This document shows, piece by piece, positions 2,515-16,821 of a stretch of DNA of 16,821 nucleotides. The notes beneath the pieces were generated by a model, which ran no database searches, was not told the DNA's origin, and saw only the letters and a program-made list of their open reading frames with translations. Made by a program: the position numbers and the translations under genes. The first letter of the stretch is position 1. Each line of letters starts with the position of its first letter. The DNA is from a virus (Duplodnaviria > Heunggongvirae > Uroviricota > Caudoviricetes), in IMG/VR virus record IMGVR_UViG_2671180758_000023; one strand, 5' to 3'.

Positions 2515-2805
2515 ATGAGAATGACCAGACACAAAAAACAGATCCTTGAACTCTACAAACCTGAGTATCGCGATTGGGTGCGGGTGGAGGCTGGAGATCC
2601 ACCTTTTGATGTTCGTGGTGTTACAGTGCTGCTCTATGGTTCCGAATATCAGCGATATCACATAGAGGCAACACGAAGGACGCTAAACGCTATGGTTCGT
2701 GATAAGTTGCTGGAGCGTGTGAAAGTCCGTGAGCCACGTTTTGATGTGCGTATTGGTGGCGATGGTGCGCATTGCACGGTAATCCGCTATGGCCTGGTAA
2801 GGTAA
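2515..2805 (+). CDS. Hypothetical small protein (96 aa) with an internal tandem repeat; convergent cargo gene
   Basis: Strong RBS AAGGAG 8 nt before ATG 2515. Internal duplication PPFDVRGVTVLLYG / PRFDVRIGGDGAHCTVIRYG. Own hairpin plus T-run terminator downstream. Opposite strand to the rest of the element. No family recognised. Confidence 0.6.
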   Translation: MRMTRHKKQILELYKPEYRDWVRVEAGDPPFDVRGVTVLLYGSEYQRYHIEATRRTLNAMVRDKLLERVKVREPRFDVRIGGDGAHCTVIRYGLVR

Positions 2806-2835
2806 GCCATCGGGTAAATCAGATGATTAAATCAC

Positions 2836-2900
2836 CAGAATGTAAATTTACATTCTGCCAGCCACCAGCTACCCTCCTCAAAATTGAGGAGCCTTTTTAT
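2836..2900. terminator. Bidirectional terminator region between convergent genes: 22-bp palindrome cagaatgtaaatttacattctg and hairpin ctcctcaaaattgaggag followed by CTTTTTAT
   Basis: Two perfect dyads read directly. The second (2874-2891) is followed by a T-run on the plus strand. The first (2836-2857) is followed by a U-rich tract in the minus-strand direction. Confidence 0.55.
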
Positions 2901-2907
2901 CAACTGG

Positions 2908-3189
2908 TTACCGCCGTAACCGCTCCGGCTTCTTCCAGTGGTACGTGATTTTCTCCTTCTCCCGATACATCTCCACGCGGCGACGGTATGCCAGCAACTC
3001 AAGGACTCTGGTTCGTATATTGCGCATATCCGCATCGTTAAGTTCAATACCATCACGGCGCATCACCTCAGCAACAACACGCGCATAATTTTCGGCGGTC
3101 ACGCTGTCCGGCTGCGTGGCCTGTTCGTCATGCTGCTGGCTGATTCCAGAGACGCGGCGGATTAATCGCAGTATTTCGGCTTCTGTCAT
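2908..3189 (-). CDS. Hypothetical protein (93 aa) immediately downstream of the large terminase
   Basis: ATG at 3189 with GAGGT about 9 nt upstream. 13 nt after the TerL stop. Charged, helical-looking sequence. No family recognised. Confidence 0.5.
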   Translation of the reverse strand: MTEAEILRLIRRVSGISQQHDEQATQPDSVTAENYARVVAEVMRRDGIELNDADMRNIRTRVLELLAYRRRVEMYREKEKITYHWKKPERLRR

Positions 3190-8387: not shown

Positions 8388-9545
8388 TTAATCGTCGTCC
8401 TGTGGCAGTTCCAGAATCTTGATCGCGTTCGAATCCACCACGCCACCGCCTAAATATTTCTGCGTGAAAATTTTGATGAAGCCCGGCTCTGTGAGGTTGT
8501 CCGGTCTGGTGCGAACACCTGTTTCGTGATCAACAATGTAGTAACCGCGTTTGAAGTCACCCAGGGCAATAACGTTATCAGGCATAAACTCCAGATATTC
8601 GACCGGAAGGCCCAGCAACGTATCAGGATCACCCGCCTGTAAACGGTCGCGCCAGATGTAATCACCGTTCGCGTTCTTCACCTTCTGAAGTTTTGCCGCC
8701 GTCGTGGAGTTAACCACCCAGACCGCGTTTTTGCGGTATTTTTTACGTAATGCAAATTTCAGGTCGATCAGCGGGTCCGCAGATGTCCACGCCAGAGATT
8801 CGGAAGGTTTAATTACCTGCAACGTACCAAAATCACGCTCTTTGTCGTTCTTCTCTGCACGGGGTACGGATAAAAAACCTTTTGCTTTTTTGTCACCGTC
8901 GCCCACAACCAGATCGCTTTCTTCGGTTTCCGTGAAGGTGTCGCCAATCTCACCCGTCAGCCATGAAAGGATGTCCACATCGGAAAAATCCACGATTTCC
9001 TGTGTGGTGCGCGGGTACGCATAGACCGGATACAGCTTAATGCTCACCTCGTTAATCTGCGGGGTGCTGGTCTGTTCGCGTGTCTTACCCTCTTCACCGT
9101 GGTTAACGGTCGCACCGCCAGCGGAAACAAGCTGCTTAAACTCGTTGCTGCTGATTTTCTTCACGGTACAGATGCGGCGCATGGTGGATTCATCCGTCAG
9201 CATTCGCATGATTTCGGTGTTCAGTTCGGGGATAACGGTATAACCACCATCAGCGGGAACGCCTGTACTTAATGCGCGGGTTTCACCTGTCAGAATGTAG
9301 TTGCGTAGTTCTGCGGGGTCAGTGGTCTGGCTGCTTTTACCTGGCTTGCTGCGCTCTTCGTCTGCAATGGCTTCAAGGCGGGAAATGTCTTTATCGAGGG
9401 ATTCAGCTTTAGCGCGTAATTCGTCAAATTTTGCGCCCTCAGCATCGTTAAGACTGCGGTTTTCTTTTTCCGCGTTCTCCAGCATGTCGCGCATCTGATT
9501 TTTAATGGCGGTTTTCTGCTGGCGTAATTCGATTATTCTCGGCAT
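8388..9545 (-). CDS. Major capsid protein, HK97 fold (385 aa from ATG 9545; ORF track extends to a GTG at 9593)
   Basis: N-terminal coiled-coil delta/scaffold-like domain (IELRQQKTAIKNQMRDMLENAEKENRSL...) followed by a typical HK97 MCP body. AGGA 8 nt before ATG 9545. Confidence 0.9.
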   Translation of the reverse strand: MPRIIELRQQKTAIKNQMRDMLENAEKENRSLNDAEGAKFDELRAKAESLDKDISRLEAIADEERSKPGKSSQTTDPAELRNYILTGETRALSTGVPADGGYTVIPELNTEIMRMLTDESTMRRICTVKKISSNEFKQLVSAGGATVNHGEEGKTREQTSTPQINEVSIKLYPVYAYPRTTQEIVDFSDVDILSWLTGEIGDTFTETEESDLVVGDGDKKAKGFLSVPRAEKNDKERDFGTLQVIKPSESLAWTSADPLIDLKFALRKKYRKNAVWVVNSTTAAKLQKVKNANGDYIWRDRLQAGDPDTLLGLPVEYLEFMPDNVIALGDFKRGYYIVDHETGVRTRPDNLTEPGFIKIFTQKYLGGGVVDSNAIKILELPQDDD

Positions 9546-9832: not shown

Positions 9833-10105
9833 TTATCTGTCCTGGTAATTTCGCCATATTTCATCGCTTACACCATCTATACCCATTTCAGCATAAGTGC
9901 GATCTACTGCCTTTCTCAGGTCTCCGAAGTTATCCGGCGGCTCCGGTGGCTTCTGTGCCTTCCTGGAACATTCCAGCCGTCGCATCGTAACCTGATGCCG
10001 TTCCTTGTCTGTCTCCACCAGCAGCATGACTTCACCCCATCGCGCCGCCGCCCTCCGGTAAAAGCCTTTCGCCTCGAGTTCTTCCGCTATGCGGTCATGT
10101 ACCAT
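9833..10105 (-). CDS. PerC-family transcriptional activator-like protein (90 aa from ATG 10105; ORF track extends to a GTG at 10225)
   Basis: MVHDRIAEELEAKGFYRRAAARWGEV and C-terminal MGIDGV motif. GAGGGGG RBS 5 nt before ATG 10105. Last gene of the early/replication operon before the terminator. Confidence 0.6.
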   Translation of the reverse strand: MVHDRIAEELEAKGFYRRAAARWGEVMLLVETDKERHQVTMRRLECSRKAQKPPEPPDNFGDLRKAVDRTYAEMGIDGVSDEIWRNYQDR

Positions 10106-10115
10106 CGCCACCCCC

Positions 10116-10526
10116 TCAGAACGGAATACCGTCACCGTAAGGGTCATCGCCTCCCGCTGGTGGCTGATTACCCTGTGTGCCTGTGGTTTTGCGTCTGTTC
10201 CCGCCAGGACGTGCCGCACGGGCACTGATTACGCTGTCTGCAATAACCTGATAACCCTGCCGCGTTTCCCCGTTCTGTCCGGTCCACTGGCTGACCTGCA
10301 TCGTGCCGGATACGCTGGCAACGTCGCCTTTTTGATGTTTAGCCAGGAAGTCGGCCTGCTTACCAAATGCGATGACCGATAGCCATAACGTAGCCTGCCC
10401 ATCCTGCGCCTGACTACATGGCAACGATACCGCCATACGTGCCAGCGTCATTGGTGTGCCCTTGCTGGTCTGTTTTACCTGCGGGTCGTCCACCAGCCGC
10501 CCGTAAGCTGCTATCTGTGCTGTCAT
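10116..10526 (-). CDS. ssb: Single-stranded DNA-binding protein (136 aa)
   Basis: OB-fold-like N-terminal region, Gly/Gln-rich linker and C-terminal acidic tail ending DDPYGDGIPF (SSB DDDIPF-type tip). Strong RBS GGAGAGGTGG. ATGA overlap with the upstream ORF. Confidence 0.8.
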   Translation of the reverse strand: MTAQIAAYGRLVDDPQVKQTSKGTPMTLARMAVSLPCSQAQDGQATLWLSVIAFGKQADFLAKHQKGDVASVSGTMQVSQWTGQNGETRQGYQVIADSVISARAARPGGNRRKTTGTQGNQPPAGGDDPYGDGIPF

Positions 10527-13369: not shown

Positions 13370-13571
13370 AAAGCATCCCCTGAATATTCGTGTTAATCAT
13401 TCCGGCACGTTTTGTGATTTCCTGTAATGATTCCCTTGTGGCGACAATTGCTTCATCTGGTAAGTGGTAATTACACACCACGCGACCTTTATCCACATTG
13501 ACCAGTAGCTGCCCTGTGAATTTCTCACGAAACTGAATGCGGTTAAGGTCAGTAAGTGACAGATTAATCAT
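13359..13571 (-). CDS. Hypothetical protein (70 aa)
   Basis: ORF in the coupled operon; overlaps the upstream gene by 8 nt. No family recognised. Confidence 0.5.
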   Translation of the reverse strand: MINLSLTDLNRIQFREKFTGQLLVNVDKGRVVCNYHLPDEAIVATRESLQEITKRAGMINTNIQGMLYAQ

Positions 13572-13767
13572 GGCGCACCTCCTGACGAATACGGGCAGCG
13601 AATACCATCACGCAGCCAGCCGGAGATTGCTGGCGTGCTTCCTGTTCGCTGGTGGCCTCAATGGTAATCACGCGCGGTTGTGCCGTGCTCAGGGCGATAA
13701 AACGCCAGATGTATTTATTCAGGTTGTGCGAGTCCCGCCCTTGCGGGTGTGTGGTATTATTTCTCAT
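13564..13767 (-). CDS. Small protein (67 aa) resembling Icd-like (host cell division inhibitor-like) proteins of P4-family elements
   Basis: GAGG RBS 5 nt before ATG 13767. Motifs YIWRF, IEATSEQEAR and FAARIRQEV recall P4-family Icd-like proteins (from memory, not searched). First gene after the divergent promoter region. Confidence 0.45.
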   Translation of the reverse strand: MRNNTTHPQGRDSHNLNKYIWRFIALSTAQPRVITIEATSEQEARQQSPAGCVMVFAARIRQEVRHD

Positions 13768-13802
13768 AGCTACCTCGATACTCTCGTTATCGTTGGTGGT
13801 TA

Positions 13803-13837
13803 GAAGCCCCGTTACTGCTCCAACAGTGCGGGGCTTC
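13803..13837 (-). ncRNA. Leader stem-loop (gaagccccg ... cggggcttc, 9-bp stem, 17-nt loop) in the 5' UTR of the early operon
   Basis: Dyad read directly. Lies between the predicted minus-strand promoter and the Icd-like start codon. Not followed by a U-run. Confidence 0.3.
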
Positions 13838-13874
13838 GTCGTTTCAATTGCTGAATTGCATGTATCAGCACTTG

Positions 13875-13929
13875 TGGTATTCACATTACATTTAGGTGAA
13901 TACCATTTCAAGTCTTTTTTGGTATTCAC
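13875..13929. promoter_or_regulatory. Operator array in the divergent switch region: three copies of TGGTATTCAC (two form a 10-11-10 palindrome), overlapping back-to-back promoters
   Basis: Copies at 13875-13884, 13896-13905 (inverted) and 13920-13929. Minus-strand promoter candidate TTGAAA (13906-13911), 17-bp spacer, TAATGT (13883-13888) overlaps copies 1 and 2. Plus-strand -10 candidate TATTAC (13935-13940) lies just after copy 3. Confidence 0.45.
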
Positions 13930-13972
13930 TTTTGTATTACACTGCATCCCGTTATTAATGGGAGGTGCAAAC

Positions 13973-14278
13973 ATGTCCAGGAGTTCTGTTAACAATAAGT
14001 CACAGCAACTGAATGCCAGATTTCCACATGAAGTAGTGAGTGGCATTGAGGCATCCCTACAGCCAGGGGAAACTAAAGCGAATTTTATAGTTACGGCTGT
14101 ACGCGGTGAGATCGCCCGGCGCCAGGCAGAAGGAAGTGGAGAAAATCCCCTGGTTTCTTCGCTCGATGCACTGGCGCAGGTGGAAAAACTCGGAATCAAA
14201 GCCGCCGAGGAGATCGGGCAGCTCGTCACTGTCGCACGTGAAGAACTCCAGCGCCGCAAGACCAAAGAACCAGAGTAA
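13973..14278 (+). CDS. Ribbon-helix-helix-like DNA-binding protein (101 aa); candidate repressor/regulator of the switch
   Basis: Strong RBS GGGAGGTG 5 nt before ATG 13973. N-terminal beta-strand-helix-helix pattern (LNARFPHEVVSGIEASL...ANFIVTAVRGEIARRQ). Divergent from the early operon. Followed by a clear intrinsic terminator. Confidence 0.6.
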   Translation: MSRSSVNNKSQQLNARFPHEVVSGIEASLQPGETKANFIVTAVRGEIARRQAEGSGENPLVSSLDALAQVEKLGIKAAEEIGQLVTVAREELQRRKTKEPE

Positions 14279-14335
14279 TCACCATCAGCGCCGTGGTGTA
14301 AGGTATTACGGCGCATTGCTATGCAGGACAACACA

Positions 14336-14509
14336 ATGACCGATAAAGAATTGACCAAAACATTATCACCGGCACGGAAAAGACGGCGCAGAAAGATAGA
14401 GCATGAATCAGAAAGATTCGCGCCATGTGCTTTTGCCCTTGAGCAATTCCTTAAAGAGTACAGGGAAAAGCGCTCATTGCAGGTATGGCAACGAACTGAA
14501 CCAGACTGA
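14336..14509 (+). CDS. Hypothetical small basic protein (57 aa)
   Basis: AGGA 8 nt before ATG 14336. Basic patch RKRRRRK. Same transcription unit as the RHH gene, ending before the terminator at 14589. Confidence 0.4.
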   Translation: MTDKELTKTLSPARKRRRRKIEHESERFAPCAFALEQFLKEYREKRSLQVWQRTEPD

Positions 14510-14588
14510 TTGCATTGCCCACCAGCCGCAAATGTGGCATTGTTGGCAATGCTCATGCGTTGGGGATAACGTGTAGCTTGTGTCGAGG

Positions 14589-14617
14589 GGCCACCGTAGC
14601 GGGTGGCCTTTGTTTTG
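14589..14617 (+). terminator. Rho-independent terminator (ggccacc-gtagcg-ggtggcc followed by TTTGTTTTG)
   Basis: Perfect 7-bp GC-rich stem, 6-nt loop and U-run, about 80 nt after the stop of the plus-strand operon. Confidence 0.7.
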
Positions 14618-14985
14618 CCCGTTATTCGGCAATTGTGGCGCTTCTCCACATGGTTGATATAATCCCACTGCTCAGATTCATTTTTTGCGCAGTAGGTTAA
14701 TTGTTCACAAAGGCGCTCCGGCAACGGGGCGCTTTTTGTTTTTATTAGTTTGTAGAAACCTGACTCAGAGATAATGCTCATATTCTGATTGCCGTCAGGG
14801 GTGTAAGTTAAATTTACTCCCTTTTTATCATCAAACATCTGCAACGCTCTGGCGTTAACAATATTGGTTTCACTCCCGCCAGTAAGGCCGGAAATAACCG
14901 GAATAATTTCGGCAAAATTTTGCAGATTCTGTTTTTCAGGACGAACGAAGCCCCGCCCTTGTTCGGGAGAATATCCAGTATTCAT
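14618..14985 (-). pseudogene. Bro-N-like antirepressor N-terminal domain, probably a gene remnant (no in-frame stop before running antisense through the plus-strand operon)
   Basis: Residues DDKKGVNLTYTPDGNQNMSIISESGFYKLIKTKSAPLPERL align to the Bro-N pattern (DEDEKGV...GG.Q...IISE.GLY.LI..S..P.A..F). Weak RBS. The frame stays open for 473 codons to 13564, but the middle section is Ser/Cys/Arg-rich antisense of a well-supported plus-strand gene. Confidence 0.3.
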
Positions 14986-15037
14986 GGTTAGATCTCTGTA
15001 TTAGTGGATGGGTGGCGGCTGTGTGCCGCCAGCCTGA

Positions 15038-15226
15038 TTAGTGAACTGCCTCGCAGCTGTCCTTCCATGCCAGAACTTCGGATAAAGACCAGCCAACGGA
15101 ACGACCGCCCAGCTTACGCCGTGATGGGAATTGTCCGGCTTTTTCCAGGCGGTACCGACATGAGCGGCTCAGGCCTGTAAGTTGCTGACATTCTTTTTCA
15201 CGTATAAAGCGATCTGTGCTTAACAC
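15038..15226 (-). CDS. alpA: AlpA-family transcriptional regulator / excisionase-like protein (about 62 aa, GTG start)
   Basis: Motif QLTGLSRSCRYRLEKAGQFPSRRKLGGRSVGWSLSEVLAWK matches the AlpA winged-helix pattern. AAGGGGG RBS 4 nt before GTG at 15226. Confidence 0.8.
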   Translation of the reverse strand: MLSTDRFIREKECQQLTGLSRSCRYRLEKAGQFPSRRKLGGRSVGWSLSEVLAWKDSCEAVH

Positions 15227-15591: not shown

Positions 15592-16821
15592 TTATATTTC
15601 TCTGGCTATTGGCAATGTGGTTACGTTTTCATGTGTTCCCGCCAGTATCCCTAACCGCTCCGTCCACATATCCAGCGCGTCACGTTTCGCATCCAGATAA
15701 CGGGAATGGTTATAGACTCGTTGCATCCCTGGCATCTGATGACCTGTAAGCTGCTCCACGACGTGAGGATCCACGCCTAAATCGTTCAGCATCGTTGTAA
15801 AGGTGCGCCGGATGTCATGCAGTGACCAGTGAGGGTGTTTTAGCCTCCTGTGCGCTAATCTGCCGTACTGCGACACGCTTGTTTCCTGTTTCAATTCCCC
15901 CAGCAATAAGCCCGTGTGCCTGTTCTGCTCCACCAGCTGCGTGACGAACGGCAGTATTGCTTCCGGTATGGGCCGGAATATTGCCACCTTCGTTTTGCTG
16001 TGTTCTTTCGGCACGGTCCAGAGCATTTCGGTAAAATCCCACTCGCTGATCTCCGATAACCTCAGTTCTACCGTCCGGCATCCGAAAACAATCAGGAGGC
16101 GGATTAGTGCGACGTAGTAAGGGGAAAATATTTTTTTGTCCAGTGCCTGCAATAATTCGCCAAGTTCTTTGGTGCTTAAGACACGCTCGCTTATATCCGG
16201 TTTTTTCCCAACGTCCGCCACACTCATATCATCAAGAACGTTGCTGATTGCATAGCGCCGCCTCCGGCAGAACTTAAGCGCCTGTTTGCACGTCTGTAGC
16301 AAGAATCCGGCAGTAACAGGCGTTCGCTTTGCCACCTGGTCAAAACAGGCCAGCCAGTGCCGTAGCTCGCATTTATCCAGCGGCATAGCACCAATGTGCT
16401 GTATTACGTGATTATTAAGGCGCTTTTTCAGGGCGGCATAATCCACGCGGTTTTCCTTTACGTAAGACTCAAGCCAGTAGGTAAGCGCATCGCCAACCGT
16501 TACGGGCTTTAACGCTTTCTGTACGGTGTAATTCATCTCATGACGTGGATTTTTCCCCTCAGCAAGCCAAGCGCGACACTGTGCCGCTTTTTCCCTGGCA
16601 GCTTTCAGACTCAGATCAGGATAATTTCCCAGCTTAATCCGTTCCGGTCGTGCTCCCCTTCCCGTTCCGGCCCTGTAGGTGAAATACCAGGTTAAAAGGC
16701 CGCTGGTTGAATGCCTGACGCTCAGGTTTCCACCGTCATTAAGAAAAGCTGTTTTTTGGGCGGGTGTGCCGTTGATTTTCCTCAGCTGTGTATCGCTCAG
16801 TTTGTTAAGTGCTCTGCTCAT
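15592..16821 (-). CDS. Tyrosine integrase, P4-type (409 aa); start codon at the window edge
   Basis: N-terminal arm-binding-like domain (LSDTQLRKINGTPAQKTAFLNDGGNLSVRHSTSGLLTWYFTYR) and catalytic motifs (HDIRRTF, C-terminal Y in GMQRVYNHSRY). ATG at 16819-16821. Confidence 0.9.
   Translation of the reverse strand: MSRALNKLSDTQLRKINGTPAQKTAFLNDGGNLSVRHSTSGLLTWYFTYRAGTGRGARPERIKLGNYPDLSLKAAREKAAQCRAWLAEGKNPRHEMNYTVQKALKPVTVGDALTYWLESYVKENRVDYAALKKRLNNHVIQHIGAMPLDKCELRHWLACFDQVAKRTPVTAGFLLQTCKQALKFCRRRRYAISNVLDDMSVADVGKKPDISERVLSTKELGELLQALDKKIFSPYYVALIRLLIVFGCRTVELRLSEISEWDFTEMLWTVPKEHSKTKVAIFRPIPEAILPFVTQLVEQNRHTGLLLGELKQETSVSQYGRLAHRRLKHPHWSLHDIRRTFTTMLNDLGVDPHVVEQLTGHQMPGMQRVYNHSRYLDAKRDALDMWTERLGILAGTHENVTTLPIAREI

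Follow-up and report, generated by a model that had tools for sequence, protein, structure and literature searches.

The stretch of DNA analysed here, 16,821 nucleotides from the IMG/VR record IMGVR_UViG_2671180758_000023 (hereinafter the window), is an Escherichia coli-type chromosomal segment that carries a capsid-forming phage-inducible chromosomal island (cf-PICI) between phoQ (positions 1-1461), which makes up one end of the window, and a gene for a tyrosine integrase (15592-16821, minus strand), which marks the end of the island and makes up the other end of the window. Our subject is the switch region of this island, that is, the 205 bp (13768-13972) that separate a 67-aa Icd-like gene (13564-13767, minus strand; NCBIfam NF033153, 1.4e-19; phrog_6196), the first gene of the leftward operon, from a divergent plus-strand gene for a 101-aa protein of the YlcI/YnfO family (13973-14278; NCBIfam NF041551, phrog_6522), hereinafter the regulator. 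The original prediction, derived from the letters of the window, described this region as an intergenic, repressor-controlled switch with three operators and a structured leader; comparison of related loci speaks for the central idea, whereas the number of sites, the role of the hairpin and the intergenic status all required correction.

Putative operator sites and divergent promoters

The predicted repeats are present where they had been reported, namely, an inverted pair of the 10-bp sequence TGGTATTCAC in a 10-11-10 arrangement and a third, direct copy. These putative operators are R1 (TGGTATTCAC, 13875-13884, plus strand), R2 (13896-13905, minus strand; GTGAATACCA when read on the plus strand) and R3 (TGGTATTCAC, 13920-13929, plus strand). 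With at most one mismatch allowed, TGGTATTCAC occurs six times in the window against 0.86 expected, a number that none of 200 shuffles reaches. The leftward promoter of the Icd-like/replication operon (13883-13911, minus strand) consists of a -35 element TTGAAA (13911-13906), a 17-bp spacer and a -10 element TAATGT (13888-13883), with the start of transcription expected near 13876. R1 overlaps the end of the leftward -10 by 2 bp and covers the expected start, R2 falls within the spacer and adjoins the -35, and R3 lies 8 bp upstream of the -35, in the -35/spacer position of the regulator's own promoter. The latter is represented by a -10 (TACACT, 13938-13943, plus strand) with no recognisable -35 and is directly followed by a degenerate site, R4 (CTGCATCCCG, compare GTGAATACCA; 13942-13951, minus strand), which contains four mismatches and was placed by alignment with well-kept R4 sites of other loci, such as CTGAATACCAC in Yersinia; in the window, R4 is predicted to be weak or non-functional. 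The three operators counted originally are all perfect copies, but the unit shared by the family comprises four sites in fixed positions, of which the degenerate fourth had been overlooked. Upstream of alpA, where AlpA autoactivates, no copy of the TGGTATTCAC motif was found.

The Icd-like gene itself contains two copies of the operator with one mismatch each (13598-13607, minus strand, and 13662-13671, plus strand), which are oppositely oriented and separated by 64 bp. They are restricted to the allele present in the window and absent from the other classes of loci, and were dropped as parts of the system; these near-copies could be auxiliary sites or chance occurrences.

Both elements of the minus-strand promoter are present as described, although 'good' was too generous a word for a promoter in which the -10 fits the consensus at only three of six positions; a consensus promoter and terminator scan of the switch region reports no promoter. 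Because the leftward promoter would be a guess from the window alone, we relied on conservation across related loci instead. These loci were gathered by a scan of one genome per species, look-ups of exact proteins, annotated E. coli records and a single 'phage' record; 20 loci enter the alignment of the switch region, 17 the scan of site positions, and up to 22 the other comparisons. The 20 aligned loci come from Escherichia, Yersinia, Enterobacter, Klebsiella, Cronobacter, Erwinia, Pantoea, Serratia, Xenorhabdus and Photorhabdus.

The gene order is the same in all loci: integrase, alpA (or a gene for an HTH_17 protein), the regulator gene on the opposite strand, the Icd-like gene, a DUF4222 gene and a primase or helicase gene. 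The position of the module between alpA and the replication genes is constant, and the remainder of the island varies, being of either the classical PICI or the cf-PICI type. Most of the 17 scanned loci contain four sites of approximately 10 bp at -99/-100, -76/-77, -54/-55 and -31/-32 from the regulator ATG. Of the 17 loci, 14 have the R1-type site at -99/-100, and three more have it at -103 to -105; in three loci, the first two sites are located at about -104/-81, and some loci show fewer than four detected sites. The promoter elements are conserved along with the sites. The leftward -35 is TTGAC(A/G) in most loci, with TTG invariant, and the T, A and final T of the leftward -10 are invariant or nearly so. 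The regulator -10 is TATAAT or TATACT in most loci, with positions 1, 2 and 6 invariant or nearly so, and is accompanied by a conserved Shine-Dalgarno sequence upstream of the regulator ATG; no -35 for the regulator promoter is recognisable in the 20-locus alignment. As expected of a divergent switch of the P22 immI type, R1 and R2 lie on the leftward promoter and R3 and R4 around the regulator -10; furthermore, as expected of the master repressor of a Gram-positive PICI, the gene for the repressor candidate is divergent from the replication operon and located on the integrase side in all loci.

The module is found in several settings. The island EcCICFT073 (NC_004431.1, strain CFT073; 8474-8853 of locus L034) encodes an opposite-strand, 59-aa short-form regulator (WP_000190587.1), and its switch follows the same scaffold as the other loci, with GGTGTGGCCCAC sites. 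A 16.5-kb record that was deposited as a phage (LR881103.1, 'Escherichia phage vB_KppS-Ant'; L032) resembles a cf-PICI; it contains, at ~2600-3120, an unannotated gene for a 67-aa regulator antisense within an annotated 324-aa open reading frame (ORF) and shares the switch scaffold, with the site sequence GTG(C/T)ACCC(C/T)CAC. In the E. coli O157:H7 strain MB41-1 (NZ_CP039834.1), an identical regulator (WP_001403025.1) and switch are found on another PICI backbone, one that has a DUF927 primase and an integrase unlike that of the window, indicating that the module moves between islands.

Site sequence and the N-terminus of the regulator

The sequence of the sites varies by locus and follows residues 9-18 of the regulator, the expected location of an Arc-type strand. 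Regulators with the strand QQ[LI]NAR[FV] (the window, a Yersinia locus, L023, and a metagenome contig, L029) are accompanied by (G/T)ATTCAC sites, and the regulator of Enterobacter asburiae (L030), with QQIGARF, by GTTCAC sites. The strand QLTTVRV, found in an E. coli locus (L014) and in six Xenorhabdus/Photorhabdus loci, goes with GTGTGTTTCA; QSLTARI, in Klebsiella and Enterobacter soli, with GTGTAAG; and S[KR]QISIRI, in Cronobacter and another Klebsiella, with GTGTGATT(T/C)A. Finally, KN-type strands (Q[VLI]KN[VI]R[IV], QMKNIRF; L003, L004, L011 and L017) are paired with GTGTGTATTT, GTGTGCATT and GTGTRTR-type cores. The orientation of the sites is + - + - in the class of the window and + + - - in the KN-type classes, and the operator cores are nearly confined to the switch of their own locus.

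Two pairs of related islands display what amounts to a swap of the site sequence together with the regulator N-terminus. Between the window and L014, AlpA is 94% identical, the integrase 97% and the C-terminal half of the regulator 95%, whereas the 45 N-terminal residues of the regulator are only 47% identical and the operators differ. Between L020 and L026, 95 of 105 residues of the Icd-like protein and 54 of 56 residues of the C-terminal part of the regulator are identical, and all the divergence falls within the operator region and regulator codons 1-26. The co-variation and the two swaps exclude AlpA, the replication proteins and the Icd-like protein as the partner that sets the sequence of the sites, which does not track the integrase either. 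They strongly, if indirectly, indicate binding of the repeats by the 101-aa protein via its N-terminus, support the prediction that DNA specificity is set by the ~26 N-terminal residues, and make binding of AlpA to the switch fragment unlikely. The best explanation of the pattern appears to be the existence of at least eight specificity classes that resemble phage immunity types, with the operator region and the regulator N-terminus being exchanged jointly between satellites as a small cassette.

Membership of the regulator in its family is clear-cut: YlcI_YnfO_N (NF041551) matches residues 9-50 with 60.8 bits against a cut-off of 30, and the identical protein in RefSeq is named YlcI/YnfO family protein. 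The relatives of the regulator, ~130 close ones and 445 by profile search, are found in Enterobacterales; the UniRef names among them include 'Arc-like DNA binding domain' and 'CopG family', and one distant relative matches DUF3950 of Pfam (1.5e-6). The protein combines an Arc-like N-terminal motif, KSQQLNARFPHEV, with a long C-terminal helix reminiscent of the one through which Mnt tetramerises. In the short forms (59-67 aa) encoded by EcCICFT073 and LR881103.1, a basic tail replaces this helix. The AlphaFold model of the monomer obtained with an alignment (pLDDT 79.5) comprises a coil at residues 13-18 and helices at 19-28, 35-52 and 59-98, a secondary-structure pattern compatible with the ribbon-helix-helix (RHH) fold; the single-sequence model is poor. 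Comparison with P22 Arc by hhalign (aligned part of Arc, PQFNLRWPREV) yields E = 0.006 and a low probability, with the two motifs in register (QFNLRWPREV vs QQLNARFPHEV). No Pfam RHH family matched the regulator or any of the 45 family members scanned, the regulator itself shows a weak Pfam match to the VapB-type family PSK_trans_fac, and fold searches with the regulator were uninformative. Searches of PDB sequences with the protein and with the family profile gave only weak matches, to DNA polymerase beta and Hef, in the C-terminal half. These helix-hairpin-helix-like matches cover residues 47-86 (14111-14230; E = 0.007 with the family profile), over which AlphaFold predicts one long helix. 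The RHH identity claimed by the original prediction is thus plausible by virtue of the Arc-like motif and the helix pattern, but is not established by the profile and fold tests. An Arc/Mnt-like RHH protein with a C-terminal oligomerisation helix is a plausible model of the regulator, and the co-variation of the operators with residues 9-18, along with the two swaps, agrees, indirectly, with the setting of base recognition by the N-terminal strand that is expected of RHH proteins.

The regulator gene is followed by a 57-aa basic ORF in the same transcription unit (14336-14509, plus strand; phrog_21027) and by two terminator-like hairpins on the plus strand. The first of these (14589-14617; GGCCACC..GGTGGCC, then TTTGTTTT) is preserved by compensatory changes in L012, L017, L020 and L032, and the second (14709-14746) is a strong intrinsic terminator, with a 12-bp stem and a T run. 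The regulator gene qualifies as a real transcription unit, since it has a Shine-Dalgarno sequence of its own, a -10 that is conserved and two terminators downstream.

Candidate antisense RNA, the long minus-strand frame and the island

The 9-bp hairpin (13803-13811/13829-13837) that the original prediction placed in the leader of the early operon is real, but it is conserved as a plus-strand RNA structure and not as an early leader. This hairpin reaches ~14 pairs with an inner 4-bp helix, and folding of 13803-13837 favours the plus strand in 20 of the 20 aligned loci (mean of -24.1 kcal/mol vs -16.8 kcal/mol for the minus strand) because its G.U pairs would be A.C mismatches in minus-strand RNA. 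With RNAalifold, the plus strand reaches -22.1 kcal/mol with 19 pairs (11 compensatory), compared with -7.4 kcal/mol for the minus strand, and the stem is followed by a U-rich tail in the style of intrinsic terminators. A second, 5' hairpin (13768-13801) is also more stable on the plus strand in 20 of 20 loci (-10.4 vs -5.2 kcal/mol). The two-hairpin element of the window has a minimum free energy of -36.2 kcal/mol (z = -6.5), and a covariance model built from eight loci detects it in all 22 loci searched, with scores of 32-100 bits. In the model-fitted alignment, 94% of the cells are paired and 12 of the 26 pairs show compensatory changes; none of 500 shuffles matches this, and slid controls give ~40%.

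A candidate extended -10, TGgTATTAT (13752-13760, plus strand; no -35), is located inside the first codons of the Icd-like gene, with its hexamer 15 bases upstream of the 5' hairpin. Among the 20 loci, T13755, A13756 and T13760 are invariant, G13753 (-14) is conserved in at least 90%, and the hexamer reads TAnnnT without exception. The hexamer is conserved across two different Icd-like N-termini, and A13756 (-11) and G13753 pair with wobble positions of minus-strand codons. Taken together, these features delineate a candidate antisense RNA of ~80 nt (13767-13846, plus strand) that would consist of an extended 5' hairpin, the terminator-like hairpin and the U-rich tail and would be complementary to the 5' untranslated region, Shine-Dalgarno sequence and AUG of the Icd-like mRNA. 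We consider such a plus-strand RNA, extending from ~13767 to ~13846 and serving as a second control layer, to have nearly, albeit not quite, an even chance of being correct. Alternatively, the two-hairpin element might provide the regulator gene with an attenuator and a promoter located upstream. Comparable antisense locks are sar in phage P22 and c4/icd in phage P1.

The region is not simply intergenic, as had been stated: 13768-13972 is free of stops in one minus-strand frame and is part of a long frame antisense to the regulator gene. This frame is open for 478 codons (13564-15000) and contains a 473-codon ORF (13564-14985, minus strand) that crosses the regulator operon in antisense as well as the switch and ends in frame as the Icd-like protein. 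In 18 of 22 loci, the frame is open across the regulator gene and the switch, for 300-700 codons; in L020, it stops 8 nt short of the Icd-like ATG. Among 13 loci, the frame has zero stops in the distal, regulator-antisense and switch segments, except for one stop in the switch segment of L005 and of L007, and the other frames of these segments carry 2-25 stops each. As a rule, the start of the frame coincides with, or extends over, the end of the minus-strand gene upstream, and in several loci the two abut or overlap; in the window, a gap of ~50 nt lies between the alpA stop (15038) and the first ATG of the long ORF (14985). The translation is of low complexity and poorly conserved. Its far N-terminus shows weak Bro-N/Ant similarity that is real in L030, and NCBI PGAP labels parts of the frame an Icd-like pseudogene in other records. 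Both plus-strand terminator-like hairpins fall inside the frame, and two apparent protein motifs, 'KTKA..GR' and 'AAGGQ', were rejected because they correspond, respectively, to the first of these hairpins (14589-14617) and to a Chi site. The Chi site (GCTGGTGG, 14526-14519, minus strand) occupies the same place in most related islands. The two strands share their wobble positions, so that conservation of the sequence cannot tell which of the overlapping frames selection preserves at the protein level.

A 12-nt copy of the 3' arm of the hairpin (GCGGGGCTTCGT; 14945-14956, minus strand, vs 13827-13838, plus strand) is located close to where the long ORF starts. This copy could pair with the Icd-like leader in a read-through transcript; a long-range pairing resembling that of seqA and seqB in P4 was considered and dropped, the copy not being conserved in most other loci.

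The minus strand of the island encodes alpA, the recognised activator of Gram-negative PICIs (15038-15226; Pfam Phage_AlpA, 3e-18), the Icd-like protein, whose family carries the label 'transcriptional repressor' in PHROGs, small ORFs, a DUF4222 protein, a RepA-type helicase and a PerC-like protein. It further encodes the major capsid protein, prohead protease, portal, head completion and connector proteins, an HNH endonuclease, and the small and large terminase subunits. This island, with int, alpA and replication genes, its own capsid, protease, portal, connector and terminase genes and no tail genes, is a cf-PICI of the EcCIEDL933 type, and the gene set agrees with the published description of such islands (10.1101/2022.09.08.507074). 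The gene for the PerC-family transcriptional regulator is located at 9833-10225 (minus strand); PerC-like proteins from another E. coli PICI have been reported to influence expression of the virulence genes of the locus of enterocyte effacement (PMC11773190).

Proposed mechanism, alternatives and significance

Under the proposed mechanism, the regulator would bind the four ~10-bp sites, which are spaced by about two helical turns. A site located within the spacer or covering the -10 and the start is in a repressor position, so that a bound protein would be expected to shut off the leftward operon; occupancy of R1 and R2 would silence the Icd-like, replication and packaging genes, and R3 and R4, which flank the regulator -10, would mediate negative autoregulation. 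From the sequence comparisons, we judge it probable that the 101-aa protein recognises the repeats and acts on the leftward promoter as a repressor. The antisense RNA would pair with the ribosome-binding region of the Icd-like mRNA and block leaky early expression. Upon induction, AlpA induced by the helper would drive transcription from the alpA promoter through the long open frame, yielding a transcript that is antisense to the regulator operon and the switch and that would both bypass the repressed promoter and interfere with expression of the regulator. The open frame would be maintained to let ribosomes follow the RNA polymerase and so prevent premature termination, as in P4 eta/kil. This AlpA read-through route is tentative; the observation that overexpression of AlpA alone drives reproduction of EcCIEDL933 (10.1101/2025.02.11.637232) fits it.

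Several observations weigh against this account. AlpA alone is sufficient to induce such islands (PMC6092414; 10.1101/2025.02.11.637232), which implies that any repression must be bypassable. In the window, the leftward -10 is weak, with three of six consensus positions and no promoter called there by the consensus scan, and R4 is degenerate, so that autoregulation may differ from that in other loci. The promoter of the candidate antisense RNA lacks a -35, and an Rfam scan of the whole window (E up to 1) yields no family for this RNA, only a chance match to RsaJ. Finally, the coinciding wobble positions blur which frame is selected at the protein level.

Among the other explanations that we considered, the repeats might be AlpA sites that activate the leftward promoter, with the divergent protein irrelevant to them. 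AlpA is the sole regulator shown to control Gram-negative PICI genes (PMC6092414), and its overexpression induces EcCIEDL933; yet, the repeats of the window and L014 are unrelated in spite of the 94% identity of their AlpA proteins, the region upstream of alpA contains no copy of the motif, and the spacer, -10 and start site are positions for a repressor rather than an activator, all of which makes direct action of AlpA on the repeats highly improbable. The presence of several ~10-bp repeats with roughly two-turn spacing near replication genes would also be compatible with replication-origin iterons bound by a satellite initiator. We regard this possibility as the most remote of all considering that the same repeat class accompanies a RepA-type helicase in the window and Zn-ribbon/DUF927 or D5_N primases in L023 and L029, that the repeats overlap conserved promoter elements, and that mapping has placed the PICI origin downstream of rep (PMC6092414).

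Two further possibilities concern the regulator itself. It might merely autoregulate, for example, as an antitoxin paired with the 57-aa ORF, leaving the early operon ungoverned: RHH antitoxins autoregulate via repeated sites, the protein weakly matches PSK_trans_fac, and a small basic ORF follows the gene. This appears unlikely given that gene calls include the 57-aa ORF in only a few E. coli loci and not in L014, L017, L020, L023, L027 and L029, unlike what would be expected of a toxin-antitoxin pair, and that the scaffold is universal, with the best-kept sites, R1 and R2, on the leftward promoter rather than on that of the regulator and with the module always between alpA and the replication genes. 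Very unlikely, in our view, is the scenario in which the 101-aa ORF is a non-functional shadow of the long minus-strand gene and the repeats are bound by some other factor, for example, the Icd-like protein, the product of the long ORF or a protein of the helper phage. Maintenance of the minus frame is clear, the Icd-like family is labelled a repressor in PHROGs and the wobble positions coincide, but the plus-strand gene possesses a conserved Shine-Dalgarno sequence, ATG, -10 and terminators, its family also exists as 59-67-aa short forms and in other settings, and the regulator is intact where the minus frame is broken (L003, L004 and L026). Moreover, the operators of L020 and L026 differ although their Icd-like proteins are 90% identical, and the minus-strand translation is of low complexity, its conserved parts outside the regulator gene being only the terminator and the Chi site. 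The comparison of loci supports a repressor/operator immunity switch with several specificities.

This putative immunity switch can be compared with several known systems. The immI region of phage P22 contains the RHH repressors Mnt and Arc, the divergent promoters Pant and Pmnt, and the sar antisense RNA. The common features are a small repressor candidate with an Arc-like strand motif and a Mnt-like layout of N-terminal DNA-binding part and C-terminal helix, operators over back-to-back divergent promoters, and a candidate antisense RNA at the ribosome-binding site of the first controlled gene. In contrast to immI, in which each of the two proteins has one operator of 17-21 bp, there is one regulator here and four sites with two-turn spacing; the controlled operon consists of the Icd-like gene and satellite replication and packaging genes instead of an antirepressor gene; the module is antisense inside a long open frame; and no sequence homology is detected at the Pfam level. 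Similarly, omega of plasmid pSM19035 is an RHH regulator that binds arrays of short, non-palindromic direct and inverted repeats. The short asymmetric sites in both orientations are reminiscent of omega, although they are ~22-24 bp apart rather than contiguous heptads, and the biological setting is different.

In the satellite P4, the early promoter and the CI immunity RNA are internal to the nested eta/kil frame, downstream of the AlpA homologue Vis, and translation of eta/kil prevents premature termination (PMC10111431). The module described here resembles that of P4 in its position after int and alpA/vis and before the primase gene, in the long frame with an internal promoter and an in-frame, small C-terminal protein of the cell-division-inhibitor type, as in eta/kil, and in two routes of expression, upstream and internal. 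It differs from P4 in that no CI/C4/IsrK-type RNA was found by the Rfam scan of the window (E up to 1), in that the proposed immunity factor is an opposite-strand protein with a cis-antisense RNA instead of a same-strand, trans-acting RNA, and in that translational coupling is not evident in the window, given the ~50-nt gap between the alpA stop and the ATG of the long ORF. The divergent repressor gene between the integrase side and the excision/replication operon, along with the proposed role of maintaining quiescence up to the action of a helper phage, is shared with Stl/Rpr, the master repressors of Gram-positive PICIs (SaPIs) (PMC6092414). Unlike Stl/Rpr, however, the regulator belongs to an unrelated protein family, and AlpA activation coexists with the repressor and would be able to override it.

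In a DNA search, 807 out of 5426 complete E. coli genomes, at least 15%, proved to contain the regulator gene. The N-terminal third of the regulator of the window is matched in only 57 of these 807 genomes, with the others matching from about codon 38 onward, as expected for exchangeable specificity cassettes. No match to the regulator was found by tblastn among 50,697 phage records; the single related 'phage' record came to light by way of the Icd-like part.

In the founding study of Gram-negative PICIs, whether these islands possess a global repressor is described as 'unclear', AlpA is reported as an activator, and the difference in induction between Gram-positive and Gram-negative islands is called 'a mystery' (PMC6092414), in agreement with the original prediction, which held that a repressor switch is not generally described for Gram-negative PICIs and that these are usually taken to rely on AlpA activation. 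The model of the field is activation by AlpA alone. In the cf-PICI papers, mention is confined to alpA and 'a gene of unknown function downstream of alpA' (10.1101/2022.09.08.507074; 10.1101/2025.02.11.637232), and a four-zone survey reports mostly unidirectional genes, with RNA immunity in some islands. Across the searchable literature (on YlcI/YnfO, on RHH proteins with PICIs or satellites, and the cf-PICI papers), which covers the field incompletely such that an earlier description is possible, no description of the module was found. It is best described as a switch of an already known kind, with a small repressor, multiple operators and divergent promoters, that here resides in Gram-negative PICIs, comes in exchangeable specificities, may include an antisense RNA and is nested antisense in a maintained open frame.

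The full reading, in which an overlooked immunity system of Gram-negative PICIs with many exchangeable specificities comprises an Arc-like repressor, four operators and a cis-antisense RNA, is nested antisense in a frame that stays open solely to permit translation and is flipped by helper-induced AlpA through translated, convergent transcription across the repressor operon, is speculative, and we hold it to be possible but doubtful; if true, it would join the logic of P22 immI and that of P4 eta/kil in a single module of ~1.4 kb. The analysis also brings to light a candidate small RNA that lacks annotation and two antisense frames whose overlap is unusual. The switch is of practical interest as well, since work is under way to engineer PICIs for use in delivery and diagnostics (PMC10460865). 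The presence of the repressor module in the prototype EcCICFT073, in the cf-PICI of the window and in at least 15% of complete E. coli genomes suggests that these islands may also be held by a repressor, and the allelic 'immunity types' could govern cross-talk between co-resident satellites as well as helper specificity.

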